From: an uncultured Actinomycetes bacterium | GTDB lineage: Bacteria > Actinomycetota > Actinomycetes > Streptosporangiales > Streptosporangiaceae | Length of the DNA stretch: 64,000 nucleotides | NCBI GenBank assembly: GCA_963770375.1 | Contig: CAVYPM010000008.1 | Coordinates: 93,999-157,998 of the forward strand | Reading direction: 5' to 3' | Shown here: positions 2,535-54,647 of the stretch, piece after piece | How positions within the stretch are numbered: the first letter of the stretch is position 1 | Layout of the letters: each line of letters opens with the position of its first letter | Translations under genes and position numbers: made by a program | Notes under the pieces: generated by a model | The model's database searches: none | What the model was told of the DNA's origin: nothing | The model's input: the letters and a program-made list of their open reading frames with translations, nothing else

Positions 2535-5093
<2,559 letters not shown>

Positions 5094-11464: not shown

Positions 11465-12991
11465 CTACTCCGGCCGCACCAGCGGGAACAGGATCGTCTC
11501 CCGGATGCTCGACCCGGTCAGCATGATCAGCAGCCGGTCCAGCCCCATGCCCATGCCCCCGGTCGGCGGCATGCCGTACTCCAGCGCCCGCAGGAAGTCC
11601 TCGTCCAGCTGCATCGCCTCGGCGTCGCCGCCCGCGGCGAGCAGCGACTGGGCGGTCAGCCGGGCCCGCTCCTCGTCCGGGTCGACCAGTTCGGTGTACG
11701 CGGTCGCGATCTCGGTCCCGAACGCCACCAGGTCCCACTTCTCGGCCAGCCGCGGGTCGTCCCGGTGCGCCCGGGTCAGCGGCGCCACCTCGACCGGGAA
11801 GTCGCAGTAGAACGTCGGCTCCACGGTCTTGCTCTCCACCAGGTGCTCGTACATCTCCAGCAGCACCTGGCCGCGGTTCCACTTCGGGTCCAGGCCGATC
11901 TCCGCGCGGGCGGCCAGCTTGCGCAGCTCGTCCTCGGTGGTGTCCGGGGTGACCTCCTCGCCGAGCGCGGCGGACACCGAGCCGTGCACGGTACGGAACG
12001 GCCACTCACCGCCGATGTCGTACTCGCCGCCGTCGGCCCGGCGGATGACCGTGCCGCCGAAACCGGCCACCGCGGCCGCCTGGATCAGCTCCCTGGTCAG
12101 CGTCGCCATCGTGGTGTAGTCGCCGTACGCCTGGTACAGCTCGAGCATGGTGAACTCGGGGTTGTGCGTGGCGTCGGCGCCCTCGTTGCGGAAGATCCGG
12201 CCGAGCTCGTAGACCTTCTCGATGCCGCCCACGACCAGCCGCTTGAGGTAGAGCTCCAGCGCGATCCGCAGGTACATGGTCAGGTCGCCGTAGGCGTTGA
12301 TGCGGGTGACGAACGGGCGCGCGTTGGCCCCGCCGTGCAGAACCTGCAGCACCGGGGTCTCGACCTCGAGGAACCCGCGCTCGTGCAGTTCCTCGCGAAT
12401 CGCCCTGGTCACCACGCCGCGCAGCTCGGCCATCTGCCGGGTCTGCGGGTTGACCAGCAGGTCCAGGTAGCGCTGCCGCATCCGGGTGGCCGGGTCGGAC
12501 AGGCCGGCGTGCTTCTCCGGCAGCGGCCGCAGCGCCTTGGCGGTGATCAGGAACGAGTCGGCCAGCACCGACAGCTCGCCCCGCCGGGAGGTGATGACCT
12601 CGCCCTCGACCCCGATGTGGTCGCCCAGGTCGACGTCCCGCTTCCAGGCCTCGAGCGCGTCCGCGCCGACCCGGTCCAGCGAGACCATCACCTGCAGGTC
12701 GCCGCTGCCGTCCCGGATCGTGGCGAAGCACAGCTTGCCGCCGGTGCGGTACAGCATGACCCGGCCGGCCACGGCGACCCGGTCGCCGGTGGCGGTGTCC
12801 GGGGCCAGGTCCTGGTAGCGCTCGCGAAGGTCCGCGATGACCGCGGTGCGCTCGAAGCCGGGCGGGTACGGGTCCTTCCCGGCCGCGCGCAGCGCGGCGG
12901 CCTTGGCCCGCCGCACCCGCATCTGCTCGGCAAGACCGCTGGCCGGGCCGGTTTCCCCGCCCGGAGCCGGCGCTGTTTCATCCGCTGTCAT
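11465..12991 (-). CDS. lysS: Lysyl-tRNA synthetase (class II)
   Basis: OB-fold anticodon-binding domain plus class II core with motifs 1-3 (FLEVETPVLQ, GIEKVYELGRIFRNEG, GGMGMGLDRLLI). ATG 12991 (MTADETAPA) is chosen because the ORF start at 13066 would overlap coaX. Confidence 0.9.
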   Translation of the reverse strand: MTADETAPAPGGETGPASGLAEQMRVRRAKAAALRAAGKDPYPPGFERTAVIADLRERYQDLAPDTATGDRVAVAGRVMLYRTGGKLCFATIRDGSGDLQVMVSLDRVGADALEAWKRDVDLGDHIGVEGEVITSRRGELSVLADSFLITAKALRPLPEKHAGLSDPATRMRQRYLDLLVNPQTRQMAELRGVVTRAIREELHERGFLEVETPVLQVLHGGANARPFVTRINAYGDLTMYLRIALELYLKRLVVGGIEKVYELGRIFRNEGADATHNPEFTMLELYQAYGDYTTMATLTRELIQAAAVAGFGGTVIRRADGGEYDIGGEWPFRTVHGSVSAALGEEVTPDTTEDELRKLAARAEIGLDPKWNRGQVLLEMYEHLVESKTVEPTFYCDFPVEVAPLTRAHRDDPRLAEKWDLVAFGTEIATAYTELVDPDEERARLTAQSLLAAGGDAEAMQLDEDFLRALEYGMPPTGGMGMGLDRLLIMLTGSSIRETILFPLVRPE

Positions 12992-15673: not shown

Positions 15674-16138
15674 TCACGGCTCCGTCTCCGTGGGGTCCTC
15701 CGGCGGTTCCGGGATGCGGCAGGACCGCTCCAGGTAGACCGCGGCGGCGGCCAGCAGCAGAGCGGCGATCAGCGTGACCCCGGCGGTGATCGTGTCCCGC
15801 CGCGGGGCCGGCTTGGCCACGATGCCGCCCAGGTAGCCGAGGAAGCCCGCGGACGCCCCGCCGAAGATCGCCGCGGCCATCGCGCTGGCCTTGGCCAGTA
15901 CCGCCATCCTGGCCATCGCGATCGGGGTTATCCGCCTGCTGGACCGGGGCTGGCCGCGGATCTGCGCCCGCACGTTGCGCCCGCTCCACGCCTCGGCCAG
16001 GGCGAGCAGCAGCAGCGCGGCCGCGGCCGTCCAGGGCAGCGGCGGGAAGTGGGCGTAGCTGAACCGGATCAGCAGCCAGGCCCCGGCGCCGGACACCACC
16101 GCGGCCAGCGCCAGCGGCCAGGGCCGGATCGGGGTCAT
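15674..16138 (-). CDS. Small integral membrane protein (DUF3180-like, Rv3605c position)
   Basis: Four predicted TM helices starting at MTPIRPWPLALAAVV. The internal ATG was chosen because it gives an ATGA overlap with the folK stop; the upstream part of the ORF is Arg/Gly-rich. Confidence 0.5.
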   Translation of the reverse strand: MTPIRPWPLALAAVVSGAGAWLLIRFSYAHFPPLPWTAAAALLLLALAEAWSGRNVRAQIRGQPRSSRRITPIAMARMAVLAKASAMAAAIFGGASAGFLGYLGGIVAKPAPRRDTITAGVTLIAALLLAAAAVYLERSCRIPEPPEDPTETEP

Positions 16139-16683
16139 GACGGCCTCCGCAGTTCGGCCCCGGTCCGGCGCAGCCCGTCCGGCAGCCCGTCCCCGGCCGG
16201 GCTGGCCGGCCCGGCCAGCCCGGCGATCAGGCCCGCGACCGGGCCGTGCCCGGGCAGTTCCGCGGCCGGGTCCACGTCGTGCCACGGCACCAGCACGAAG
16301 GCCCGCTCGTGCGCCCGCGGGTGCGGCAGGGTCAGTTCCGGGTCGTCGCTGACTACTGTGCCGTAGCTGATGATGTCCACGTCCAGCGTGCGCGGGCCCC
16401 AGCGGACCTCTCTGGTCCGCTGCCGGGCCGCCTCCGCGGCGTGCGCCGCGGCCAGCACGCCCGCGGGCGGCAGCGTGGTGCTGGCCAGCAGCACCGCGTT
16501 GAAATAGTCGGGCTGGTCCGGCCCGCCCACCGGGTCGGTCCGGTAGACCGGCGACACCGCGGTGACGCTCAGCCCCGGCACCGCGGCCAGCGTGTCCACC
16601 GCGGCCTGCAGGTGAGCCAGCCGGTCGCCAAGGTTGCTGCCCAGCGCGATGACCACCGCGACCGGGCCGCCGGGATCGGTCAT
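16135..16683 (-). CDS. folK: 2-amino-4-hydroxy-6-hydroxymethyldihydropteridine pyrophosphokinase (HPPK)
   Basis: VAVVIALGSNLGDR...PRTLDVDII...HPRAHERAFVLVPWHDV; ATGA overlap with folB. Confidence 0.85.
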   Translation of the reverse strand: MTDPGGPVAVVIALGSNLGDRLAHLQAAVDTLAAVPGLSVTAVSPVYRTDPVGGPDQPDYFNAVLLASTTLPPAGVLAAAHAAEAARQRTREVRWGPRTLDVDIISYGTVVSDDPELTLPHPRAHERAFVLVPWHDVDPAAELPGHGPVAGLIAGLAGPASPAGDGLPDGLRRTGAELRRPS

Positions 16684-17087
16684 GCCCGGCCCCGGCGGAT
16701 GGTCACGGCCACGTCGTCGAACGGGAACGGGATCGGGGCCTGCGGCTTGTGGACGGTGACCTCCGCTTCGCGCACGGCCGGATCCGCCAGGCAGGCCGCG
16801 GCCAGCCGGCTGGCCAGGGTCTCGATCAGGTCGACCGGCTCCCCGGTCACGATGGCCACCAGCCGGCCCGCCAGCGCGCCGTAGTCGGCCGTCCCAGCCA
16901 GGTCGTCGGCCTCCGCCGCCGCGGTCGTGTCGGTCCACAGCACGGCGTCGATCACGAACTCCTGGCCGTCCCGCCGCTCATGCTCGAACACCCCGTGGTG
17001 GCCGCGGGCCCGCAGCCCGCGCAGCGTGATGCGGTCCCCGGGCACCCCGCCCTGGCCCGCATGCACCGGACCCTGATCCCCGCTCAT
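16680..17087 (-). CDS. folB: Dihydroneopterin aldolase
   Basis: 135 aa. ITLRGLRARGHHGVFEHERRDGQEFVIDAVL; ATGA overlap with folP. Confidence 0.85.
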   Translation of the reverse strand: MSGDQGPVHAGQGGVPGDRITLRGLRARGHHGVFEHERRDGQEFVIDAVLWTDTTAAAEADDLAGTADYGALAGRLVAIVTGEPVDLIETLASRLAAACLADPAVREAEVTVHKPQAPIPFPFDDVAVTIRRGRA

Positions 17088-18067
17088 GCCCAGCCGCCCA
17101 GGCCCGCCGGGACGGCGCCTTCCGGTCCGGGGCCGGTCTGTGCCGCGGCGGCCTGCCGCCAGCGGGCCGCGACCCGGACCGCGTCGGCGCTGGCCGCGGC
17201 GGCATGCACGCGCACGCACCAGGCCCCGGCGGCCGCCGCCAGCGCGGCCACCGCGAGCGAGGCCTCGTCCCGGCCCTCGGCGGGCCGCGGCTGCCCGTCC
17301 GGGTCCGCCAGCAGCTGGCCGAGGAAGCTCTTCCTGGACGCGCCCACCAGCAGCGGGAACCCGGGACCGGCCCGGTTCAGCCGGGAAACCCGGGGCAGGT
17401 CGGCGAGCAGCGCCCAGTTGTGCCCGGCCCGCTTGGCGAACCCGATCCCGGGGTCGATCACGATCCGGGCCGGGTCGATGCCCGCGCCGGCCGCCGCGTC
17501 GGCCTGCTGCGCCAGTTCGGCGCAGACCTCGGCGACCACGTCGGTGTAGCGGGCCAGGTCGCCCATGACCGCGCTGGGCCCGCGCCAGTGCATGATCACG
17601 TACCCGGCCGACGCGGCCCGCACCACCGCGTGCATACCCGGATCGGCCAGGCCGCCGCTGACGTCGTTGACCATGACCGCGCCGGCCGCCAGCGCGGCCG
17701 CGGCCACCTCCGCGCGGGTGGTGTCGATGCTGACCGTCAGCCCGGCCGAGACCAGCGCGGTGACGACCGGGCCAACCCGGCGCAGTTCCTCGGCCCCGGT
17801 GACCCGGCCCGCGCCGGGCCGGGTGGACTCCCCGCCGACGTCGATGATGTCGGCGCCCTCGGCGGCCAGCGCAAGCCCGTGCGCTACCGCGGCGTCGGGG
17901 TCCAGCCACCGGCCGCCGTCAGAGAACGAGTCCGGGGTGACGTTGACCACGCCCATGACCAGGCAGCGATCCAGCGCGGGGCGCCCGCCCAGGCCGGGCG
18001 GGCCAGGCCAGGCGGGCGGTGTGCCCTCGTGGCCCGTGGTGCCGGTGGTGCCTGTCATAGAGGCCAA
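17084..18067 (-). CDS. folP: Dihydropteroate synthase
   Basis: VMGVVNVTPDSFSDGG...DVGGESTRPGA...DPGIGFAK aligns with M. tuberculosis FolP1. The true start may be ~30 codons inside the ORF. Confidence 0.85.
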   Translation of the reverse strand: MASMTGTTGTTGHEGTPPAWPGPPGLGGRPALDRCLVMGVVNVTPDSFSDGGRWLDPDAAVAHGLALAAEGADIIDVGGESTRPGAGRVTGAEELRRVGPVVTALVSAGLTVSIDTTRAEVAAAALAAGAVMVNDVSGGLADPGMHAVVRAASAGYVIMHWRGPSAVMGDLARYTDVVAEVCAELAQQADAAAGAGIDPARIVIDPGIGFAKRAGHNWALLADLPRVSRLNRAGPGFPLLVGASRKSFLGQLLADPDGQPRPAEGRDEASLAVAALAAAAGAWCVRVHAAAASADAVRVAARWRQAAAAQTGPGPEGAVPAGLGGWA

Positions 18068-20339: not shown

Positions 20340-21005
20340 TCAGGCGCCGGGGCGGCCCACGATCAGGCTCATTGCTTCGGCCCGGGTCACCGTGCTGTCC
20401 CTGAAGATGCCCCGCACCGCGGACGTGACGGTCTTCGCCCCCGGCTTGCGGACACCCCGCATGGCCATGCACAGGTGCTCGGCCTCGATAACGACAATAA
20501 CGCCGGTGGGGTCAAGAACGTTCATCAGCGCATCGGCAATCTGGCTGGTCATCCGTTCCTGGACCTGAGGCCGCCGGGCGTAGAGATCGACAAGCCGGGC
20601 CAGCTTGGACAGACCGGTGATCTGGCCGCGCGCGTTCGGGATGTAGCCGACGTGCGCCGTGCCGAAGAACGGGATCAGATGGTGCTCGCAGGTGGAGTAC
20701 ACCTCGATGTCCCGCACGAGCACCATCTCGTCGTGGTCAGCGTCGAAAACGGTGGTCAGCACGCTTTCCGGGCGCTGGCCGAGCCCGGCGAACTGCTCCG
20801 CGTAGGCCCGGGCCACCCGGGCCGGCGTGTCCCGCAGGCCGTCGCGCTCCGGGTCCTCGCCGATCGCGGCCAGGATCTCCCTGATGGCCCGCTCGATCCG
20901 CGGCTGGTCGACCGCGGCCGCGGGCCGCCGGGTTCCGGCCAGGGCCGGTGGCCCGTCGGCCCCGTCGGCCGCCGCGGCCGCGGGCCGTCCCGCGTCAGAC
21001 GTCAA
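20340..21005 (-). CDS. folE: GTP cyclohydrolase I
   Basis: [29 protein letters not shown]; overlaps ftsH by 4 nt. Confidence 0.9.
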
Positions 21006-23074
21006 GAGATCCTGCCGGCCGGCCCATCATCAGGCTTACGGTCCGACATCGAGGCGCCGCTGCCGCCCACCGAGCCGGTCCCGCCGATGGCCGGGGGCTC
21101 GGCGCCGGACCCGTAGCCCTGGCCGTTGCCGGCCGCGGGCAGCGCGGTGCCGTCCGCCCCGGCCAGTGCCATCTCCTTGGGCGTCAGCACCGGCGGCCGG
21201 TCCGACGGCAGCCGCTTGCCGGTCCCGGTGTACGAGCCGCGGGACACCCGCTCGCGGATCGGGCTGAAGATCTCGAGTACCTGGTCCCGGGTCAGCGTCT
21301 CGTGCTCTATCAGCTGCAGGACCAGGTTGTCGAGCACGTCCCGGTACTGGACCAGGATCTCCCAGGCCTCGTCGTGCGCCGCCTCGATCAGCTTGCGGAC
21401 CTCTTCGTCGATCGCCGAGGCGATCTCCTCGGAGTAGTCCCGGCTGTGCGACATCTCCCGGCCGAGGAACGGCTCGCCGTCGTTGTTGCCGAACTTCCTG
21501 GCCCCGAGCCGCTCGCTCATGCCGTACTCGGTGACCATGCCGCGGGCGATCTGGCTGGCCTTCTCGATGTCGTTGGCCGCACCCGTGGTCGGCTCGTGGA
21601 AGACCAGCTCCTCGGCGGTCCGCCCGCCCAGCAGCATGGCCAGCTGGTCCATCATCTCGACCCGGCTGACCAGGAACTTGTCCTCGGTCGGCGCGGACGC
21701 GGTGTAGCCGAGCGCCCGGCCGCGCGGGATGATCGTGATCTTGTGCACCGGGTCGGCGTTCGGCAGCGCGTGCCCGACCAGCGCGTGACCGCCCTCGTGG
21801 TAGGCGATGATCTTCCGCTCTTTCTCGGACAGCAGCACGCTCTTGCGCTTGGGCCCGGCGGTGACCCGGTCGATGGCCTCTTCCAGCGAGGCCATCGCGA
21901 TCTGGGTCTGGTTCCCGCGGGCGGTCAGCAGCGCGCCCTCGTTGATCACGTTGGCCAGGTCCGCGCCGGTGAACCCGGGGGTGCGCCGGGCGATCATGTC
22001 CAGGTCCACGTCCGGGCCCATCGGCTTGCCGCGGGCGTGCACCTTCAGGATCCCGCGCCGGCCGTTCAGGTCCGGCTGGGCCACCACGATCTGCCGGTCG
22101 AACCGGCCGGGCCGCAGCAGCGCCGGGTCCAGGATGTCCGGCCGGTTGGTGGCCGCGATCACGATCACGCCGCCCTTGGTGTCGAACCCGTCCAGCTCGA
22201 CCAGCAGCTGGTTCAGGGTCTGCTCGCGCTCGTCGTGGCCGCCGCCGAAGCCGGCCCCGCGGTGCCGGCCGACCGCGTCGATCTCGTCCACGAACACGAT
22301 GGCCGGGGCGTTGGCCTTGGCCTGCTCGAACAGGTCACGCACCCGGGAGGCGCCGACACCGACGAACATCTCCACGAAGTCCGAGCCGGAGATGGAGTAG
22401 AACGGCACGCCCGCCTCGCCGGCCACGGCCCGGGCCAGAAGGGTCTTGCCGGTACCGGGCGGGCCGTACAGCAGCACGCCCTTGGGGATCTTCGCGCCGA
22501 TGGCCTGGAACTTGCCCGGGCTCTGCAGGAACTCCTTGATCTCCTGGAGCTCCTCGATGGCCTCGTCGGTCCCGGCCACGTCGCCGAACGTGGTCTTCGG
22601 GGTGTCCTTGGTGATCAGCTTGGCCTTCGACTTGCCGAAGTTCATCACCCGCGAGCCGCCGCCCTGCATCTGGTTCAGCAGGAACAGGAAGATCAGGATG
22701 ACCAGCAGGAACGGCAGCCAGCCGATGATCAGGGCGAGCAGCGAGCTGCCCTTGGGCACCTCGACGGTGTAGCCCTCGGGCAGGTGGCCCTTCTTGTACT
22801 CGTCCTGCAGCAGCTGGGCCAGCGCGGTGCCCTGGTTCTGCACCCAGGAGGCCTGCAGCGGCGGGCCGCTGACCGGCGTGACCTGGATGGTCTGCTGGTT
22901 ATCGATGAGCAGCGCCGACTTGATCTTCCCCTGCTCGATCTGCGAGATGACGAACGAGGTGTCGGCCTGCTTGTAGGCCGTGCCCGAGCTGGCGTACTTG
23001 TAGACGAAGAAGAACAGCAGCAGGACAACAAGAACGGCGACAAACGGCCCGCGGAAGTAGCGCTTTAGATCCAT
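21002..23074 (-). CDS. ftsH: ATP-dependent zinc metalloprotease FtsH
   Basis: Two N-terminal TM helices, AAA+ Walker A (GPPGTGKT) and second region of homology, and the HEGGHAL zinc site. Confidence 0.95.
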
Positions 23075-27577: not shown

Positions 27578-28063
27578 GTGGAGTTCGATGTCGTCATTGA
27601 GATCCCGAAGGGGACGCGGAACAAGTACGAGATGGACCATGAGACCGGGCGTATCAGGCTGGACCGGATGCTGTTCACGTCGACCCGCTACCCAGCCGAC
27701 TACGGGTTCGTCGAGGACACGCTAGCCGATGACGGGGACCCGCTGGACGCGCTGGTGATCCTGGAGGAGCCGACGTTCCCCGGCTGCCTGATCCACTGCC
27801 GGGCGATTGGCATGTTCCGGATGCGGGACGAGAAGGGCGCGGACGACAAGGTGCTGTGCGTCGCGTCCACCGACCCGCGGATGGCCCATCTGACCGACAT
27901 CAGCGACGTGCCGGCCTTCGACCGGCTGGAGATACAGCACTTCTTCACGGTGTACAAGGCGCTGGAGCCCGGCAAGGAGGTCGAGGCCGCCACCTGGGTC
28001 GACAAGGCCGCGGCCGAAGCCGAGATCCAGGCGTGCCGGGAGCGGCTGGCCGCGGCGGGCTAG
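27578..28063 (+). CDS. ppa: Inorganic pyrophosphatase
   Basis: [30 protein letters not shown]...DGDPLDALV, family I PPase signature. Confidence 0.95.
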
Positions 28064-35087: not shown

Positions 35088-35432
35088 TCAGCTGGCGACC
35101 AGTTCGTCGCCGCTGCGCTCGTACTTGTTACGGGCGGTCTCCAGCAGTTCGCGCCAGGAGTCAACGTCCGGGCGGCGCCGGAGCAGCGCCCTGCGCTCCC
35201 GCTCAGTCATCCCGCCCCACACACCGAACTCAATGCGGTTGTCCAGCGCGTCCGCGAGGCACTCAGTGCGGACGGGGCAGCCGCGGCAGATCAGCTTGGC
35301 CCGGTTCTGCGCCGCCCCCTGGACGAAAAGCTCGTCAGGGTCCGTGCCTTTGCACGCGGCGCGGGCGGTCCAGTCCGTGATCCACATGTAGCCCAACTCC
35401 TCCTGATCGTCACGCCCGCAAGGGGTCGTCAC
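35088..35432 (-). CDS. whiB4: WhiB-family Fe-S transcription regulator (WhiB4 orthologue by sequence and synteny)
   Basis: C-x22-C-x2-C-x5-C cluster ligands and the GVWGG turn; ...TDPDELFVQGAAQNRAKLICRGCPVRTECLADALDNRIEFGVWGGMTERERRALL closely matches Rv3681c. Confidence 0.8.
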   Translation of the reverse strand: MTTPCGRDDQEELGYMWITDWTARAACKGTDPDELFVQGAAQNRAKLICRGCPVRTECLADALDNRIEFGVWGGMTERERRALLRRRPDVDSWRELLETARNKYERSGDELVAS

Positions 35433-41353: not shown

Positions 41354-42254
41354 TTAGGCTGATTGGACGCAGCGGAAGCCGACGTGGCTGGTGGTGTCGC
41401 GGGGGCCGTGTCCCTGGCGGGCGGCGGGACGGTACCGGTGGCAGTAGGAGGGTGCGCACAGATGTGAGCCGCCCTTGATGACGAACCGGTCATGCTCGCC
41501 CACGGTGGCACGCGGTGCGCAGCAGGCGGCTTCGGCAACAGGCTGATCGTCTGGCCGGGAGCCGCGTTCCGCGGCTGGGTGGCGGGCCCAGCGGGTGGCT
41601 GTCCATTCCCAGACGTTGCCGGTCATGTCGTACAGGCCGTAGCCGTTGGCCCGGAACTTCTTGACCGGGGAGGTCCGGGTGAAGCCGTGCGGGGCCAGGT
41701 TCTGGTAGGGAAACCGGCCGTGCCAGGTGTTGGCCATGATCCGCCCCCTGGGCATGAACTCCTCGCCCCAGGCGTAGGTGGCGCCGTCGAGGCCGCCGCG
41801 GGCGGCGTGTTCCCATTCGGGCTCGGCGGGCAGGCGCTTGCCCGCCCAGGCGGCGTAGGCCAGGGCGTCTTCCAGCCCGACGTGCACCACCGGGTGCAGG
41901 TCCCGGCCGTGCAGGGTGGAGCCGGGGCCCTCGGGGTGGCGCCAGCTGGCGCCGGGCACCCAGCACCACCACCTGGGTCCAGTCATCCAGCGGCACCGGC
42001 CCGGGCGTGGGGGTGAAGACCTGCGATCCGGGCACCAGCAGCGCCGGGTCGGCGCCGGGGAAATCGCGGGGGTCGGGGGCGGACTCGGCGATGGTCACGT
42101 GCCCGGTGGCCGTGACGAACCGGCGGAACGCGGCGTTGGTGACCGGATGGTCATCGACCCACAGGCTCTCCACCTCCGCGGTGATCACCGGGCCTTCTTC
42201 CGGGTAGAAGGCGGTGCTGCCCATCCGGAATGATCCCCCAGGAACCATGGTCAT
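41354..42254 (-). CDS. Formylglycine-generating enzyme (FGE/SUMF1 family) carrying a +1 frameshift near 41965-41980
   Basis: N-terminal part (VPGGSFRMGS...EGPVITAEVESLWVDDHPVTNAAFRRFVTATGH) is in the frame of ORF 41490-42329. The C-terminal part (WWCWVPGASWRHPEG...GNVWEWT...GGSHLCAPSYCHRYRPAAR) is in the frame of ORF 41354-41986. One extra g in the ggtggtggtg run. Confidence 0.7.
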
Positions 42255-42351
42255 GCCCTTGCGCGGCACGCCCTCGCGGTGGGGACTCTGGCCCGGGGTG
42301 CGGAGCGGGCGGGGGCGGCTAACGTTCATTGGCGGTGGCGATGTCAGCTCG

Positions 42352-45779: not shown

Positions 45780-46626
45780 ATGACCACCCTCAGTTATCAG
45801 CAGCACGGGCACCACCAGCCCACCCGCCTGCCCGTCTACTCCCTGCCGCAGCGCGTCACCCAGAGCCGGGTGATTGCCGCCGAATGGATCAAGCTCCGCA
45901 CCCAGCAGTCGGCCCTGTGGGCCGGCGCCGGCGCCATCGGCCTGACCGCCGGGTTCGGCATCCTGTACGCCGCGCTGCTCGCGGCCCGGCCGCCGCACGG
46001 CGCCGCCGCCGCCGCGTTCGACCCGACCGCGGTCAGCCTGTCCGGGATCCAGCTGGCCCAGATCGCGGTCGGCGTGCTCGGCGCGATGCTGATCACCAGC
46101 GAGTACGGCAGCGGGATGATCCGCGTCGACGTTCGCGGCCGTGCCGCGGCGGCTGCCGGTCCTGTGGGGCAAGGCGGCGGTCGCGCTGGGCGCGGTGTTC
46201 GCGGCCTGCGTCCCGGCCGTGCTGATCGCCTTCTTCGCCGGCCAGTCGGTGCTGGCCAAGGTGGGCCTGGACACCTCCTTCGGCCAGCCAGGGGTGGCCC
46301 GGGCGGTGCTGGGCAGCGCTGTGTACCTGGCCGTGGCCGCCGTGCTGGGGCTGGGCCTGGGCGCGCTGCTGCGCAACACCGCCGCCGCGGTGACCGCGCT
46401 GTTCGGGCTGCTGTTCGGCCTGCAGCTGCTGGCCGGCCTCATCCCCGGCGCCACCGGTGTCACCCTGGAGAAGTTCATGCCGTCCACGGCGGGCCAGGCC
46501 ATCGCCAGCGTCCACCCTGACCCGGGCACGTCGCTGGGCCCGTGGACCGGCCTGGGCCTGTTCGCCTGCTACACGATCGTGGTCCTGGTCCTGGCCGCCC
46601 GGCGGATGAGCCGCGGCGACGCATGA
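45780..46626 (+). CDS. ABC-2 family transporter permease carrying a +1 frameshift near 46110-46125
   Basis: N-terminal half (45780 onward; TM1 and the EYGSGMIR motif) and C-terminal half (ORF 46141-46626; AVPRRLPVLWGKAAV..., four more TM helices) are in different frames. The conserved SASTFAAVPRR junction is readable in the second frame immediately upstream. Confidence 0.65.
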
Positions 46627-47789: not shown

Positions 47790-48044
47790 CTACAGGAACT
47801 GGCCGGTGGAGTGCTCCGGGTCGCCGTTCCAGGCGACGCCGATGACCTGCGCGGGGTCGAGGACCGTCCAGCCGGACTCCCGCTCGATCCGGAGCAGCCC
47901 GTCCGGCCGGACCGCCACGGCGGTGAGCTTGTTGCTCTCGGTGGAGGCGAAGCCGACCTGGCCGATTCTGCTGACCACCATGAACACCGTGCCCGACTTG
48001 CCGATCAGTGGCGTGAGCAGATCGCAGATCGTCTCACCGGTCAT
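47790..48044 (-). CDS. Small hypothetical protein (~84 aa)
   Basis: MTGETICDLLTPLIGKSGTVFMVVSRIGQVGFASTESNKLTAVAVRPDGLLRIERESGWTVLDPAQVIGVAWNGDPEHSTGQFL. GGAGG RBS. Non-Arg-rich composition unlike the overlapping high-GC frames. Confidence 0.35.
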   Translation of the reverse strand: MTGETICDLLTPLIGKSGTVFMVVSRIGQVGFASTESNKLTAVAVRPDGLLRIERESGWTVLDPAQVIGVAWNGDPEHSTGQFL

Positions 48045-48200
48045 TCGCATCGCCTCCCGAGAGCTAACGGGAACCATGCCCAGGGCCGGGTGGCCGGAAG
48101 CACGGTAGCGCCGGAAAGCCCGACCGGGCGGGCCGGCCGCGGCTGGGGAGGGGTCCCCGGAGCGGTTTTGCTTTCCGGCCGCCCGAAATACAGTTGGCGC

Positions 48201-51200
48201 GTGGAAGCTGGGAAGCCCGGGTCCGGGGGTTCGGCACCGCCGCTCGTCGTGGGTTACGAGGGGATCGAGCGTGTCCTGACCCCCGGTCCGGCATACCGGA
48301 TCGGGCGGGACCCCAAGGGTGACATCCCGATCACCGACGACCGGGTGTCCTGGCGCCATGCGGAACTACGGGTCGAAGGCAGCCGCTGGGTCCTGGCCGA
48401 CGTCGGCAGCACCAACGGCACCTACGTGGCCGACCAGCGGATGGACCGCGTCGAGATCATCGGGATCTTCCTGGCCCGGCTCGGCGACCCCTCCGACGGG
48501 ACGCTGCTGACCTGCGTCGTCACCGGCCAGGAACCGGGCGCCGCGCCGGGCGGCCGGCCCGCCACTCAGGTGGCCGACCTGGGCGGCAGTGCACTCGGCC
48601 GCAACCTGGGCCCGGCCACAGTCGGCCCCGGCGGCATCCCGTCCGGGCCCGACACCGTTGGGCCGGACGGCGTCCCGGCCACCCGCGGCCCCGCTGCCGC
48701 GCCGGCCAGCCCCACGGCCGCCCCGGGCAGCCCAGCCGCGGACCCGGGCGGCACGGCGGTCGTTCAGCCGGTCCCCGCGCCGTCGGCCGGTCCCGGTGCG
48801 GAGCCTCCCACCGGCTGGCCGCCTATCGTCCCGCCGGAGCCGTCCGCCGAGCCGCCGTCACCGGCCCGGCCGGCCAGGGACGCCACGATGGCGGCCGGGC
48901 CGACCCCGGAGCCGCCTGCGTCCCCGCCGCCCGCCCGGCCAGCCAGGGAGGCGACCATGGCCGCGGGCTGGGCCGCGCCGGAGCCGTCCGCGCCCTCCCC
49001 GGTCCCGCCCCCGCCTGCCGCCACGCCTGGCCCACCGCCGGCCGCTGGACTCCTCCCGCCTGGCCCGGCACAGCCGGCTGCGCCCGCGCCTGGCGCCGTC
49101 TCGCCGGAGGCTGCGCAGCCTGATCCGCAGGTCCTCCCGCCCGGTGCGGCCACCATGGGCCCGGCGGCCATCCCGGCCGCGCCGCTCACCCTCGGGCCGG
49201 CCCCGGCCCCGCCGCCGCCGACGCCGGGCGGGACGCCCGAGCCGGCCGTCCCGGAGATCGTGCGGATCGGGCGGGCGCCGGAGAGCGACATCGTGATCCC
49301 GGACACCAGCGCCTCGCGGAACCACGCCGAGCTGCACCGCGACGGGGCCGACCTGCGGATCGTGGACCTGGGCAGCTCCAACGGCACGTACGTGAACGGG
49401 CAGCGGGTCAAGGAAACACGGCTGGCCGAGGGCGACATCGTCGGCATCGGCTCGAGCGTGTTCCGGCTGGCCGGGCAGCACCTCCTGAAGATCCACGACG
49501 CGGCGGCAGCCATCGAGGCCACGTCGGCCGCCGCCGCAGTTTCCGTACTCCATGAAGATGGCGCGCCACTCGCACCATCGCCTGCCGAGCCAGCCGGGCC
49601 CGCCCCCGCGCCGCCTGCGGCAGCACCGGCCCCGCCCGTGCCCCCGCTGCCCGGCGCACCCGGCCCGGCTGCAGCCGGCGTGCCCGCGGCGGCGCCGGCG
49701 GGCGCGGGACAGCCGGGCCCGTGGGCCGTCCCGCCGAAGGCCAACGCCGACGGCACGCTGGAGATCGGCTACGCGATCCGCTGGCTGGTGCCCAAGGGCG
49801 AGCGGTTCGCGAACTTCGGCATCCTCAACGACAACGACAGCCAGCTGGAGTACTACCGCAAGTTCGGGCACATCTACGCGGTCGGCGTGCCCACCAAGAA
49901 GTGGCGTCTGGTGGTGGTCTCCGACCCGGATCTGCTCGACGAGGTGGCCGGCCACGAGGAGCAGTTCGGCAAGCGGGCCGAGGAGATCAACTTCTTCGCC
50001 CAGCTGAGCAACTCCCGCGGCGGCGGTATCTCGGTGATCGGCGACAGCGCGCGCACCGAGATGATCCGCCGGGTCATGCTGCCCTGGTACTCGCCCCAGC
50101 ACCAGCGCACCCAGCTGGAGCTGATGAAGGAGCAGGCCCGCCGCCTGGTCGCGAACTGGGCCGCGCTGCCCGACGAGCAGCCGGTGGACGCCCGGGTCTG
50201 GATGGAGCGTTACGCGCTCGAGGTGTCCGGCCGCGGCGCCTGCAACTACAACTTCGGCCTGCTCGACGGCAACCCCAGCCCGCCCCCGTTCGCCGAGGCG
50301 GTGCTGGAGAGCACCAAGGAGAGCATCCGCCGGGTCGCCGACCCGTTCCCGGACAGCAGGCTGGCCGGCCGGGCCAACCGCGCCCGGCGCGACCGCTACC
50401 GGCAGTACAACGCCGAGCTGGTGCGGACGGCCGACGCGCTGGTCCGGGCGCGCAAGTACACCGCCCCGCTGGGCCCGCAGAACGACCTGCTCAGCCGCCT
50501 GGTGAGCACGCCGGACCCGGAGACCGGCGAGTACCTCGACCGGGAGACGGTCCGCGACCAGGTGCTCATGCACCTGTCGAACGGCTTCAACGGGCCGTCG
50601 ATCACCGGGGCCTGGCTGGCGTCTGTCCTGGCCAGCTACCCCGAGGTCGAGGAGAAGATGCTGGCCGAGATCGACGGGATCACCGGCGGCGACCCGGACT
50701 ACGACCTGAAGTACGACGACCTGCTGTCGCTGACGTACATCACCCAGGTGATCAAGGAGACCCTGCGCGTCTACCCGCCGCAGCCGGTCACGATCCGGCG
50801 CAGCCTTAAGGACGGGATGCTCGGGCGCTACCGGGTCCGCAAGGGCGACATCATCCTGGTCGGCTCGCTCGCCGCGCAGCGTGATCCGCGCTACTGGGGG
50901 CCCGAGCCGGACGCGTTCGACCCGTCGCGGTTCGAAGCGGACAGGGTTGTGGACCGGCCGAGGCACGCGTTCATCCCGTTCTCGGTCGGGCGGCGGCAGT
51001 GCATGGCGCAGGAAGTGTCGTTCATGATGCTCCGCGTCGTGCTGTTCGAGATCTTCAAGCACTACCGGCTGCGGCCCGCGCCGGGCACCGCGGTCGTGAA
51101 GAACACCCTGGTGACCACCAAGCCCGCCGCGGTCCCGGTGGTCCGCATCCCGCGGGAGCGAGCGGCCTGGGCGGACGGGGCCGCGGCCGCTGGTGCCCCG

Positions 51201-51270
51201 GCGGCCGCTCCAGCGCCGTCGGCCGCGGGTGCGCCTGCGCCGGCCATGCCGTCCGGCGCCGCGCCGCGCC
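48201..51270 (+). CDS. Multidomain protein: FHA domain - Pro-rich linker - FHA domain - CYP102 (P450 BM3)-like heme domain; continues into the reductase domain after an apparent -1 frameshift
   Basis: FHA1: YRIGRDPKGDIPITDDRVSWRHAELRV...GSTNGTYV. FHA2: VRIGRAPESDIVIPDTSASRNHAELHR...GSSNGTYVNG. P450: DPETGEYLD, ETLRVYPP (ExxR), FIPFSVGRRQCMAQ (heme Cys loop), and overall collinearity with BM3. The I-helix lacks the acid-alcohol pair (NGFNGPS replaces AGHETTS). The start is uncertain (GTG 48201 or 48249). Confidence 0.7.
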
Positions 51271-53431
51271 GTCCTTGGCTGCGGCTGCGGCCGCTGCTGC
51301 GCCGGCCGCTGCGCCCGCGGCGCGTCCCTTGCCGGGCAACGGCGGGCGGCCGTCCTCCGGCGGACGGGACTGGGGCGAGCCCGCCGAGATCCCGGCCACG
51401 AGCGCGTACCGCCATCTGGTCATCGCCTACGGCAGCAACTTCGGTGCGAACAAGGAACTCGCCGAGCAGTTCGCGCAGCGCAGCCGCTTCTACGGCTACA
51501 CCAGCGAAGTGGTCACGCTGAACGAGCTGGCCGCCGCGCCGCCGCGCACCGAGCCGTGGCTGCTGGCCGTCTTGACCTCCACCTACACCTCGAACCCGCC
51601 GTCGAACGCGGCCGCGTTCAAGGAGCTGCTGGAGCGGTCCTTCCCGGGCGCGCCGATGTGGCAGCAATGCCGTTACCTGGTCTGGGGTCTGGGGAACAGC
51701 CAGTGGAACGCGTTCCTCGCCTTCCCCCGCTGGGTGCACGCGCGGCTCGCCGAACTGGGGGCCACGCCGGTCGCTGACTTCGGTTACGGCGACGTCGGCT
51801 CGCCGGCCTGGGAGCGGCTGCACGCCGAGTGGAACAACGGGGTGTGGCCGGTCCTGCTCGGGCTGTCCGGCGCCCGGCGGACCGACTCCGCGGCGGCACG
51901 GATCGCCGCGGAGCAGGCCGCAGTGAGCGCGCTGGTGGGCGGCGACTCGGGCGTCGCGATGCAGCGGTCGCTGATCGGCAGCATCCCGGCCGAGCTGCGT
52001 AACCGGTCGGCTGGCGGATCCTCGTTCATCAGCCGCACGCCGTCCGGGTTGCGGAGCCTGGCGGCGCCGGCCGTCCGGGCGGCTGAGACAGCCCCACCCG
52101 CCCCAGCGGTCCCACCGGCCCCGGCGGGCCAGCCGGTCCAGGCGGGTCAGCCTGCACCCGCGCGTCAGCCTGCGGGTCAGGCGGCTCAGCCGGGCAGCAT
52201 GCTGGTCCCGGTCACGCTCACCAACGCGGTGGACCTCGAGACCGCCGAGGCCCGCGTGCTGGCCGTCCGCGAGCTGCAGGCCGCCGGGTCGCCGAAGCAG
52301 ACCCGGCACCTGGAGCTCAGCCTCCCGGCCGGCTTCACCTACCTGGCCGGCGGGCACGTCGGGATCTGCCCGAAGAACGACCCGCAGCAGGTCGAGAGGC
52401 TCGCCGCGCGGCTCGGCGCCCCGCTGGACGGCATCTTCATGGTCCCCGAGGAGATCGACGCCCGGGCCGTGCCCAGGGGTGTGGTCCTGCAGGTCCGCAA
52501 CGTGCTGACCAGCCTGGTCGACATCGCCGGGCGGCCCAGCGCGGCCCTGCTCGACCTGCTGCTGGAGAAGGTCACCGACCCGTCGGAGTGGACCCGGCTG
52601 GCCGAGTTCAGGGACGTGCTGCAGTGGCCGGACGGACCGCGCTCGGAGCTGCACGACATGATCGACGCGGGCCGCTACGACGCGCTCCAGCTGCTCGCCG
52701 AGTTCCCGTCCTGCTCGCTGAACATCTTCGACTTCCTGCGGGTGGCCCAGCCGCTCCGGCCGCGCTACTACTCGGCCAGCTCGTGCCCGCAGGTCCACGG
52801 CGGCCAGGTCGTGCACCTGACCGTGGGCCACGAGTCCGTGCCGGTTCCCGGCCGGCCGGACCGCGATTTCCGCGGGATGAGCTCGCACTACATGCGCACG
52901 CTCCGCGAGGGCGACGCGGTGAACGTGTTCTTCGACGACGCGGCCGGGTTCCGCCTCCAGGACGACCCGGCGAAGCCGATGATCTTCGTTTCCGCGGGCA
53001 CCGGTTTCGCGCCGATGCGTGCTTTCCTGTGGCAGCGGCAGGCGCTGCGGGACAGCGGTGCCGCGCTGGGCGAGGCGGTCCTGTTCAACGGCATCCGCGA
53101 GCGGGGCGTGGACGACATCTACCGGGACGAGATCGACCAGTTCGCGGCCGACGGGCTGCTCGATGAGGTGCACCTGGTGGCTTCCCGCGAGCAGCCGGGG
53201 ACCCGCGAGCACGTCCAGGACCGCATCCGCGCGCAGGGCGTGCTGATGAACGGGCTGCTGGCGGAGGGTGGATACGTCTACGTCTGCGGCTCGCAGCCAA
53301 TGCGCGACGGGGTCCGTGCGGCGTTCGCCGACGTGCTGACCGAGCACCGGCCGATGCCGCGCCCGGACGCCGTGGCCTACCTCGACGCCCTGGAGGCGGA
53401 CGGGCACTACCGGCCTGACCTGTGGGGTTGA
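51271..53431 (+). CDS. Diflavin NADPH-cytochrome P450 reductase domain (flavodoxin-FMN + FAD/NADPH), almost certainly the C-terminal part of the preceding P450 gene
   Basis: HLVIAYGSNFGANKELAEQFA (FMN), RYYSASSCP (FAD), FVSAGTGFAPMRAF and YVYVCGSQPMRDG (NADPH), C-terminal YRPDLWG as in BM3/CPR. The Ala-rich linker is readable in both frames around 51250-51290, consistent with a 1-nt indel. Confidence 0.75.
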
Positions 53432-53468: not shown

Positions 53469-53535
53469 CTAGAGTCCGACGAGATCAACCGCGCCGCTGG
53501 CCGCGCGCGCCTTGCACGTGACCTGGAGCTTTACA

Positions 53536-53705
53536 TGGATGCTCTTGCTCTCATCCTGACCCTTGCGGCCCTGGTGATGTTCGCGCTCGCGGCGAGCGGC
53601 CGGGAGCTCCGCCGGTTCAACGAGATCGCTCTTGGGCTGGTGTTCCTCACCGCCGCACTGATCTGCCAGTTCACCGGGATAACGAACACGCACATCGGCC
53701 GCTGA
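53536..53705 (+). CDS. Small two-TM membrane protein (56 aa), absent from the ORF track
   Basis: MDALALILTLAALVMFALAASGRELRRFNEIALGLVFLTAALICQFTGITNTHIGR*. GGAG RBS 6 nt upstream. Locally lower GC. Confidence 0.35.
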
Positions 53706-53738: not shown

Positions 53739-54368
53739 CTAACCGGCCTCGGGTGGCTGGGGCGCGGGCTCCCACGGTGGCCGGCCGGCCACCGGCGGCG
53801 GCGTGACGCTGAGCCCGCCCGGCGACGGCGCGTACGTCCCGGCCGGCCCGGCCGGCGGGGAATGGTGCCGCGCCACGTACCCCGGCCCCGGTCCGGCGGC
53901 ACCGCCCGGGCGGGCCGTGCCCGGGTCCAGCACCGATGTGGGCGGCGGGGCCGGCGGGAACGGCGGCCCGTACCCCGGGCTCGCCGCCTGGCCCGGAGCC
54001 ACGGGCGCCGCTGGCAGCGCCGACGGGAACATGGGCCCGGCCGGGACTGCGGGTGGCGGCGGGACCGCGGCGGCCGGCGGCATCGCGTGCCGCGCCCCCG
54101 GTGGCAGGTCCCGGGACAGCGGCATCCCGTGGGCCTGCGTCGCGCCCCGGGCCGGCAGCCCGTTCTGGGCCGGCAGCCCACCCTGAGGCGGGGAGCCGCT
54201 CCGGAACGGAGGCGCGGTCCGCGTCTGGCGGGGCCGCGCGGTGGCGGGCCGGGCGGCCTTGGGCCGGGCCGGCGTGCGCTCGCGTTCTGCCCCCGGTGGC
54301 GCCTGGGAGACCGCGACCAGGATCACCACGAGCAGCGCGGCCAGGAATATCACGAACCACATCACCAT
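53739..54368 (-). CDS. Single-pass membrane protein with long Pro-rich extracytoplasmic tail
   Basis: MVMWFVIFLAALLVVILVAVS TM helix, then a Pro/Ala/Gly-rich sequence with few Arg residues (unlike spurious GC frames). Confidence 0.35.
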   Translation of the reverse strand: MVMWFVIFLAALLVVILVAVSQAPPGAERERTPARPKAARPATARPRQTRTAPPFRSGSPPQGGLPAQNGLPARGATQAHGMPLSRDLPPGARHAMPPAAAVPPPPAVPAGPMFPSALPAAPVAPGQAASPGYGPPFPPAPPPTSVLDPGTARPGGAAGPGPGYVARHHSPPAGPAGTYAPSPGGLSVTPPPVAGRPPWEPAPQPPEAG

Positions 54369-54647
54369 CGATGTGCTCACGGCGTCACCCAGGGCCTTCT
54401 GTGACACTTCTGCTTCAGATGAGATCAGCAATGATGGCCGCATCCGCGCAGCTAGGTAAGTGATATCACCCAGATTGCCGGGCTGTTTCCTAGTTCAGGC
54501 ATCGGTTAGGCATCAGACAGCCACATCGCGGGCCCGGAAACCGGCCGGACGGCGGCTTCGGGCCGGAACCTGCGGCGCCCAGCGGAAGAATCTCAGGCCG
54601 GCGAGCAGCCCGGCAGACCGCCCAGCCGCGGCCAGCACCACCAGGTC

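Follow-up and report, generated by a model that had tools for sequence, protein, structure and literature searches.

Can a bacterial cytochrome P450 be joined, in one polypeptide, to domains that read phosphothreonine, and what kind of enzyme would result? This question is raised by a locus in a 64,000-nucleotide stretch of DNA, hereafter the window, from an uncultured Actinomycetes bacterium of the Streptosporangiaceae (GenBank assembly GCA_963770375.1, contig CAVYPM010000008.1, positions 93,999 to 157,998), with a G+C content of ~72%. The best explanation, to which a probability of about three in four is assigned, is that positions 48201-53431 of the plus strand hold one gene, broken by an insertion or deletion (indel) in the assembly, that would encode a P450 of the type of CYP102A1 (P450 BM3) from Bacillus megaterium, regulated by forkhead-associated (FHA) domains and accompanied by a membrane protein partner. 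The product would be a single protein of ~1,740 amino acids (aa), consisting of a first FHA domain (FHA1), a disordered Pro/Ala/Thr linker, a second FHA domain (FHA2), another linker, the P450 haem domain, and the flavin mononucleotide (FMN) and flavin adenine dinucleotide (FAD)/NADPH domains of a diflavin reductase.

Two overlapping open reading frames (ORFs) cover the locus. The first (47811..51521, +) is stop-free throughout and contains two FHA stretches (Pfam E-value 4.7e-38) and the P450 domain (Pfam p450, E-value 2.4e-58). The second (50999..53431), in another frame, contains the Pfam domains Flavodoxin_1, FAD_binding_1 and NAD_binding_1 and ends in YRPDLWG (53408-53428), followed by the stop codon TGA (53429-53431). 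All Pfam domains lie on one strand, in the order expected for an FHA-FHA-P450-reductase protein. The first reading-frame segment (48201..51266), delimited by ORF, Pfam and codon composition and part of one ORF in orthologues, covers FHA1, a linker, FHA2, a second linker, the haem domain and the start of a third, Ala-rich linker. The second segment (51269..53431) covers the remainder of that third linker and, according to Pfam, the FMN domain (~51371-51880), the FAD-binding domain (52247-52891) and the NADPH-binding domain (52985-53317). Between ~48300 and 51150, the G+C content at third codon positions (GC3) of the first frame lies at 0.84-1.0, with the exception of 0.70 in the Ala/Pro-rich second linker (49500-49650), and the high GC3 passes to the second frame from ~51300 to 53400, that is, through the reductase. 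An earlier note on this DNA had described a stop-free frame from FHA1 through the P450, with coordinates for FHA1, FHA2 and the haem domain that agree with those computed here, and a diflavin reductase ending in YRPDLWG; all of these stand.

By sequence comparison the fusion is real and not a product of read-through, as the earlier note had argued. The five Pfam families (FHA, p450, Flavodoxin_1, FAD_binding_1 and NAD_binding_1) occur together in single ORFs of 1327-1785 aa in 36 protein clusters that share 58-92% identity with the query, and intact 1785-aa orthologues are encoded on short-read contigs. Mapping of the domains with tblastn showed that the FHA, P450, FMN and FAD/NADPH segments are collinear among relatives and lie in one frame in short-read assemblies. 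Neither a stop codon nor a frameshift is present between FHA2 and the P450 domain in the window, and the homologues are in frame across this junction. The possibility that the FHA protein and the P450 are separate genes was rejected on these grounds, as the two are joined in one stop-free frame here and in the single ORFs of 36 clusters. For the full protein, no NCBIfam model reaches its cut-off. Full-text literature searches returned no paper on an FHA-P450 fusion, the one apparent match being rejected as a sequence motif, 'FHAGPR', in a table. The view of the earlier note that the architecture is undescribed therefore holds for papers, but public databases already contain the architecture, with automatically assigned names of the kind 'sulfite reductase alpha subunit-like flavoprotein/cytochrome P450/pSer/pThr/pTyr-binding forkhead associated protein'.

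The FHA-bearing forms, found in dozens of related genomes, are part of a larger family. The protein search, for which the conceptually joined 1742-aa protein served as query, was dominated by low-complexity words and missed FHA-less relatives, which were recovered by a domain-only search and a scan of one genome per species. Relatives occur in 98 species-level genomes; the 80 listed, to which the counts of loci for FHA states and frame switches refer, are all metagenome-assembled genomes (MAGs) of uncultured organisms. Two FHA domains are present in 27 of these loci, one (always FHA1-like) in ~21 and none in ~32, the FHA-less forms being labelled as Gaiellaceae, Thermoleophilia, Acidimicrobiaceae, Solirubrobacterales and others. 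The haem domain was also used for a neighbour-joining tree, a quick distance tree without support values. The FHA-bearing proteins fall there into a single clade that lies within the FHA-less proteins, and forms with one FHA domain are mixed with those that have two. In three proteins from Dehalococcoidia/Chloroflexota MAGs (P0227, P0232 and P0252), an N-terminal cytochrome b5 domain (PF00173) stands in place of FHA, with haem domains that are 69-75% identical. Since FHA-less and cytochrome b5 forms exist, the core of the family, as judged from the domain content of its members, is the P450-reductase fusion, whose N-terminus has acquired differing accessory domains. The N-terminus looks like a hot spot for such gains, and its variants (none, one FHA, two FHA, cytochrome b5) provide a natural series on the addition of regulatory domains to redox enzymes.

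The gene starts further downstream than the 47811 given in the earlier note, which lies ~390 nucleotides (nt) too far upstream. The N-terminus is conserved among homologues (GGSAPPLVV), and in most FHA-bearing loci a promoter-like -10 hexamer, TACAGT, stands exactly 6 nt before a GTG or ATG (among them L001, L006, L008-L013, L017, L018, L021, L022, L031, L047, L056, L063, L068, L075 and L079). In the window this element spans 48189..48203 (+), with TACAGT at 48189-48194 and GTG at 48201-48203. Upstream of the conserved TACAGT-N6-GTG there is often a -35-like element, either TTGACA-like or TTTACTTTC. A generic sigma-70 promoter scan gave no match at the gene start, so that the promoter call is based on conservation across loci. 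Because the N-terminus and the promoter are conserved, and because a minus-strand gene for an 84-aa protein occupies 47790-48044, the true start is placed by comparative sequence evidence at GTG 48201. The first 390 nt of ORF 47811..51521 are an artefact of a stop-poor GC-rich frame and are non-coding for this protein. The arrangement TACAGT-N6-start is typical of leaderless actinobacterial mRNAs and suggests a leaderless transcript here.

The FHA module

FHA1 (48234..48527, +) and FHA2 (49251..49499, +, the best Pfam stretch) together score 129.9 bits with the Pfam FHA model over the two stretches. Both keep the Gly-Arg, Ser-x-x-His and Asn-Gly elements that contact phosphothreonine in FHA domains: in FHA1 GR (48303-48308), SWRH (48348-48359) and STNGT (48408-48422), and in FHA2 GR (49269-49274), SRNH (49314-49325) and SSNGT (49374-49388). 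Across 20 homologues the residues G62, R63, S77, H80, N99 and G100 of FHA1 and G405, R406, S420, H423, G443 and T444 of FHA2 are invariant. Among solved structures, FHA1 is best matched by FHA-1 of the Mycobacterium tuberculosis ATP-binding cassette (ABC) exporter Rv1747 (6ccd, E-value 2e-12), and FHA2 by GarA (E-value 4e-13), with Rv1747 FHA-2 also among its matches (6cah, E-value 1.6e-12). Each FHA domain thus matches the positionally equivalent domain of Rv1747, and the likeness to the tandem module of Rv1747 put forward in the earlier note is borne out at the level of sequence.

The two domains are joined by linker 1 (48528..49250, +), a probably disordered stretch of 241 aa rich in Pro, Ala, Gly and Thr, which contains 73 Pro, 54 Ala, 15 Thr and only 7 Arg. 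The Pro/Ala-rich, Arg-poor composition noted earlier is therefore correct, as is the repeated PARPAR[DE]ATMAAG unit. Its two copies (48861-48899 and 48930-48968) are followed by a third ATM at 49149; the pair is confirmed at the protein level and went unreported by a DNA-level repeat finder. FHA2 is in turn connected to the haem domain by linker 2 (49500..49757, +; 86 aa), which is Ala/Pro-rich, stop-free and in the same frame, as it is in homologues.

The module shares with Rv1747 its two FHA domains, the disordered Thr-containing linker between them and its N-terminal position on a large enzyme. It differs in being carried by a soluble redox enzyme, a P450-reductase, and not by an ABC transporter, in having no adjacent PknF-like kinase, and in a linker whose sequence is unrelated and whose length varies greatly. 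In Rv1747 the linker threonines T152 and T210 are phosphorylated by PknF (PMC8339232). The second comparison is with GarA and OdhI, stand-alone FHA regulators of Actinobacteria through which enzymes of central metabolism are controlled. GarA, the top solved match of FHA2, acts in trans and is switched off by its own N-terminal phosphothreonine, whereas the FHA domains here are fused in cis. A more remote parallel is offered by neuronal nitric-oxide synthase, in which a haem-thiolate oxygenase and a diflavin reductase are combined with an N-terminal protein-interaction domain (PDZ) for targeting. This is an analogy only, as the oxygenase fold is unrelated, the domain is PDZ and not FHA, and control is by calmodulin.

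From these comparisons, the most likely ligand of the FHA domains is phosphothreonine produced by Ser/Thr kinases. This phosphothreonine may be located in the linker of the protein itself or on a partner, and binding could subject the oxygenase to Ser/Thr kinase control of its assembly, location or activity. P450 BM3 is active as a dimer in which electrons pass between the subunits, and contacts of an FHA domain on one chain with phosphothreonine on another would, speculatively, make a plausible switch. Phospho-regulation and phase separation, both raised in the earlier note, would be further conceivable consequences.

Several observations speak against such a role. Linker 1 is conserved neither in sequence nor in length, the distance between the FHA domains ranging from ~0 to ~290 aa among homologues, and only the window's own clade has the long Pro-rich form with ATM repeats, which is replaced elsewhere by 0-100 aa. 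The window yielded no Ser/Thr kinase, and only 4 of 88 loci have a kinase gene close to the family gene; a linked kinase as a general feature was rejected for this reason. The number of FHA domains is 0, 1 or 2, hence they are accessory and not needed for catalysis. Finally, every family member comes from an uncultured organism, leaving the family without a biochemical anchor. One alternative is that the fusion is real but its FHA domains take no part in kinase-dependent control, serving as constitutive modules for protein-protein contact or self-association (scaffolding, or clustering by way of the disordered linker) or persisting as evolutionary baggage. Apart from the missing kinase neighbour and the unconserved linker, it is favoured by the repeated loss or gain of FHA2 across the tree and by the lineages whose catalytic core has no FHA domain at all. 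However, all canonical phosphothreonine-contacting residues are invariant in both domains of proteins that are otherwise ~65% identical, which argues for selection on phosphopeptide binding, and the closest relatives, Rv1747 and GarA, are phosphothreonine-dependent (PMC8339232). This alternative is considered unlikely, though not negligible.

BM3-type self-sufficient P450s are workhorses of biocatalysis, and what is understood of their natural regulation concerns, to our knowledge, almost only transcription. If kinase control of the window protein is true, Ser/Thr-kinase signalling would act directly on an oxygenase through phosphothreonine readers that are part of it, a form of P450 control on which no paper was found. 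Among P450s, the protein would then be the first to contain its own phosphopeptide reader, which might control dimerisation or clustering as in Rv1747.

At two loci of the family, an Rv1747-like FHA-ABC transporter gene is located beside a Ser/Thr kinase gene, in the arrangement of pknF-Rv1747, ~5-6 kb downstream of the FHA-P450 gene (L025, 13692-16320; L087, 17282-20266). The FHA module may derive from such a locus, or the kinase there may be shared.

The P450-reductase core

The haem domain (49758..51164, +) reaches 198.5 bits with Pfam p450, against a cut-off of 22.8. It contains the ExxR motif as ETLR (50757-50768), a PERF-like motif as PSRF (50922-50933) and the Cys-ligand loop FSVGRRQCMA (50979-51008), all three invariant across 20 homologues. 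The best-scoring solved sequence is CYP102L1 (PDB 6n6q, E-value 1.1e-38), with BM3 also among the best (E-value ~1e-33), and identity over aligned residues amounts to 26.4% with CYP102L1 and 28.1% with the BM3-type entry 8hkj. An AlphaFold2 model of the domain has a mean predicted local distance difference test score (pLDDT) of 76 and a predicted template modelling (TM) score of 0.81, and a Foldseek search with this model returned BM3 haem domains for all top matches (TM-scores 0.77-0.81, 24-25% identity). Taken together, the motifs and the fold place the domain in the P450 superfamily.

Membership of a CYP family requires >40% amino-acid identity, and the 24-28% found here, in a comparison with solved CYP102 members only, falls below this limit. 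Judged from its sequence, the protein is therefore not a member of CYP102 but a self-sufficient P450 of BM3 type by architecture. The description as CYP102-like in the earlier note remains apt insofar as BM3 is the closest solved relative in fold, but not as a family assignment. The relation to CYP102L1 is similarly limited, as that entry, despite being the best-scoring one, is 26% identical and consists of a haem domain only, with neither reductase nor FHA. The domain is 69-80% identical between classes of Actinomycetota, an unusually high conservation for a P450, which suggests a conserved physiological role.

The reductase finds its best solved matches in full-length BM3 entries (E-value 1e-64) and next in eukaryotic cytochrome P450 reductases, with nitric-oxide synthase reductase domains also among the matches. 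Its FMN, FAD and NADPH motifs are present and invariant across 20 homologues. Haem, FMN and FAD/NADPH domains follow one another on one polypeptide in the single-ORF orthologues, as in class VIII P450s, the chain in the window being broken by the net -1 indel discussed below. NADPH-driven oxidation without separate redox partners would be expected of such a protein, with electrons passing from NADPH through FAD and FMN to the haem-thiolate centre; cofactor loading and direction of flow are assumed by analogy. The window protein thus has in common with BM3 and the other class VIII fusions the order of domains on one chain, the Cys loop, the ExxR and flavin motifs, and a C-terminus of the ...DLWG type. 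It differs in its N-terminal tandem FHA domains, in having long disordered linkers and an insert of low complexity that separates the FMN domain from the FAD domain, in a 56-aa membrane-protein neighbour that looks obligatory, and in the replacement of E267/T268 by Asn and Gly-Pro. The insert, rich in Pro, Ala and Gln (…ETAPPAPAVPPAPAGQPVQAGQPAPARQPAGQAAQPG…), is located at ~52080-52210 and varies in length among homologues.

The replacement concerns the I-helix, where the window has HLSNGFNGPSIT (50571-50606, +) and BM3 has FLIAGHETTSGL. In the alignment, E267 and T268 correspond to Asn and Gly, followed by Pro, and the family motif SNGFNGPS, invariant or nearly so, stands where BM3 has AGHETTS. 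The acid-alcohol pair of the consensus [AG]Gx[DE]T[TS] is accordingly missing, which does not exclude membership of the superfamily, as the pair is not universal in P450s. The Asn-Gly-Pro replacement hints at non-canonical O2 activation or at other chemistry. Two features of the haem domain count against the proposed enzyme: without the Glu/Thr pair that BM3 uses for O2 activation, ordinary monooxygenation is not assured, and confidence in the structural model is moderate (pLDDT 76), with four segments below 50. Given the low identity to CYP102 and the missing pair, the proposal in the earlier note of a fatty-acid-type hydroxylase is not established.

A reading that goes further is that the haem domain is no O2-activating hydroxylase at all but carries out substrate-assisted or otherwise non-canonical chemistry, or serves as a redox or gas sensor. 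The near-invariant I-helix substitution is in its favour, and so is the N-terminal cytochrome b5 domain of some Chloroflexota members. On the other hand, the family strictly conserves the thiolate ligand and a complete diflavin reductase, as would be expected for reductive O2 activation, and there are true monooxygenases, such as EryF and P450cin, that lack the I-helix threonine. This reading is regarded as doubtful. The combination of an abundant, conserved family, an unusual I-helix and a linked miniature membrane protein points to a probably physiological substrate and a new CYP family.

The frame switch

The change of frame between the haem domain and the reductase takes place at 51262..51275 (+), inside the Ala-rich linker to the FMN domain (51165-51370), and amounts to a net shift of -1. 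The frame slip reported for this linker in the earlier note is thus present in the sequence, but most likely as an assembly artefact and not as biology. It is highly probable that the organism encodes one polypeptide of ~1,740 aa, because nearby genes are broken in the same way, the contigs disagree, splits follow sequencing technology and short-read relatives are fused.

Within 12 kb of the window, three genes are each frameshifted once, all of them intact on the short-read contig L082 at ~94% protein identity. Besides the P450-reductase gene, these are a gene for an FGE-sulfatase (41357-42329, -), split at ~41973 and intact as a 324-aa protein on L082, and one for an ABC-2 permease (45780-46626, +), split at ~46125, within ~46110-46135, and intact there as a 280-aa protein. 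The breaks in these two genes point to an indel-prone assembly, probably one made from Nanopore reads. The closest long-read relative, L081, is a 64.9-kb ENA contig with the gene order of the window and is 99.0-99.3% identical over 16.4 kb, with 27 gap openings; several of the indels between the two fall exactly in the 60-nt GC-rich tract of the frame switch. From the P450 to the FMN domain, the window has 296 nt and L081 has 299 nt, each leaving a remainder of 2 on division by 3; the short-read contigs have multiples of 3, namely 273 nt (L082 and L083) or 315 nt (L001). Three short-read contigs with the window's gene order encode an intact 1785-aa protein, and close short-read relatives in general have one protein of 1720-1785 aa. 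Furthermore, full-length members at at least 90% identity cluster together with the split form. Frame switches within the gene occur in 18 of the 37 long-read MAG contigs from Microflora Danica (MFD) and in 1 of the 43 others (Fisher p = 7e-7, 80 loci), and the MFD MAGs were assembled from Nanopore reads (PMC12313526). As a practical warning, multidomain architectures can be hidden or distorted by split genes in MAGs of Nanopore origin.

What speaks against an artefact is that both long-read contigs, the window and L081, carry the net -1 shift. Were the frameshift real in this strain, it would leave an FHA-FHA-P450 protein with an out-of-frame tail of ~85 residues (~250 nt) and a reductase with its own start acting in trans, or else a young pseudogene. 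In addition to the agreement of two independent long-read contigs in the remainder of 2, this view can draw on TTG codons in the reductase frame at 51275 and 51329 and on the nature of the linker, a hypervariable, GC-rich and indel-prone tract. It is opposed by the disagreement between window and L081 in the indel pattern within the same 60 nt, by the two further genes within 12 kb that are broken in the window and intact in the orthologous short-read contig, by the dependence of splits on sequencing technology, by the fusion in all close short-read relatives and by the high GC3 through the reductase. A genuine frameshift is therefore judged improbable. Programmed -1 ribosomal frameshifting, to which only the size of the net shift lends itself, can be dismissed almost entirely, as 51255-51280 contain no slippery heptamer of the form X XXY YYZ, relatives are plainly in frame and the site differs between the two long-read contigs.

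The probable partner gene and the neighbourhood

Directly behind the reductase lies a gene for a protein of 56 aa (53535..53705, +; GGAG 7 nt before the ATG), which the earlier note omitted together with the FHA-less relatives. Its product has two predicted transmembrane helices (MDALALILTLAALVMFALAASGRELRRFNEIALGLVFLTAALICQFTGITNTHIGR), the hydrophobic segments being joined by an invariant SGRELR(R/H)FNEI loop. Of the 81 loci with enough downstream sequence, 78 have the gene immediately after the reductase stop, at 69-100% identity and irrespective of FHA count. The intervening gap measures 5-46 nt in general and 106-107 nt in the window's clade. The sole exceptions are L023, L043 and L049, one-FHA loci that group together in the tree, where the gene went undetected despite downstream sequence. 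Look-ups in the reverse direction gave the same association: in 8 of 8 cases the upstream neighbour of the 56-aa gene was a family gene (intact or split, with domain hits for three) or a gene truncated where the contig stops. The 56-aa protein forms 724 protein clusters in the collection and belongs to no Pfam or NCBIfam family, with Pfam giving only a sub-threshold match to DUF6220.

The 56-aa gene is probably a co-transcribed partner of the P450-reductase gene, and the two would probably share the leaderless transcript. Its helices predict an association with the membrane, where the small protein may tether the enzyme or present a membrane substrate to it. In the proposed order of events, the BM3-type (class VIII) core and the small membrane protein would form an old, strongly conserved module of uncultured soil Actinomycetota, and one actinomycete lineage would later have gained an FHA module of Rv1747/GarA type at the N-terminus. 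A more far-reaching version, to be taken as tentative and rather unlikely, is that the P450-reductase and its 56-aa partner represent an unrecognised, near-housekeeping, membrane-associated redox system of these organisms, with non-canonical chemistry and, in one lineage, gating by kinases through FHA domains.

Other operon partners were rejected as candidates, since none is conserved beyond the closest relatives. When 14 neighbouring proteins of the window were compared by tblastn with all fetched loci, shared gene order was found only in L001 and L081-L084, and the Pfam-annotated neighbourhoods of four distant homologues all differ. The divergent 84-aa gene upstream (47790-48044, -) is conserved in these same five loci only, and its product belongs to no known family, no NCBIfam model reaching its cut-off. 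A Pro-rich protein encoded at 53739-54443 (-) has one N-terminal hydrophobic helix and no Pfam family, and evolves fast, with 62-69% identity in close relatives.

Farther away, positions 2535-38116 resemble a conserved housekeeping region of an actinobacterial genome, as judged by the N-terminal residues of its ORFs alone. By the same measure this region includes clpC-like (2535-5030, -), lysS-like (11465-12922, -) and ftsH-like (21002-23074, -) genes, possible folate genes (~16135-17956, -), a pyrophosphatase-like gene (27578-28063, +) and a WhiB-like gene (35088-35396, -).

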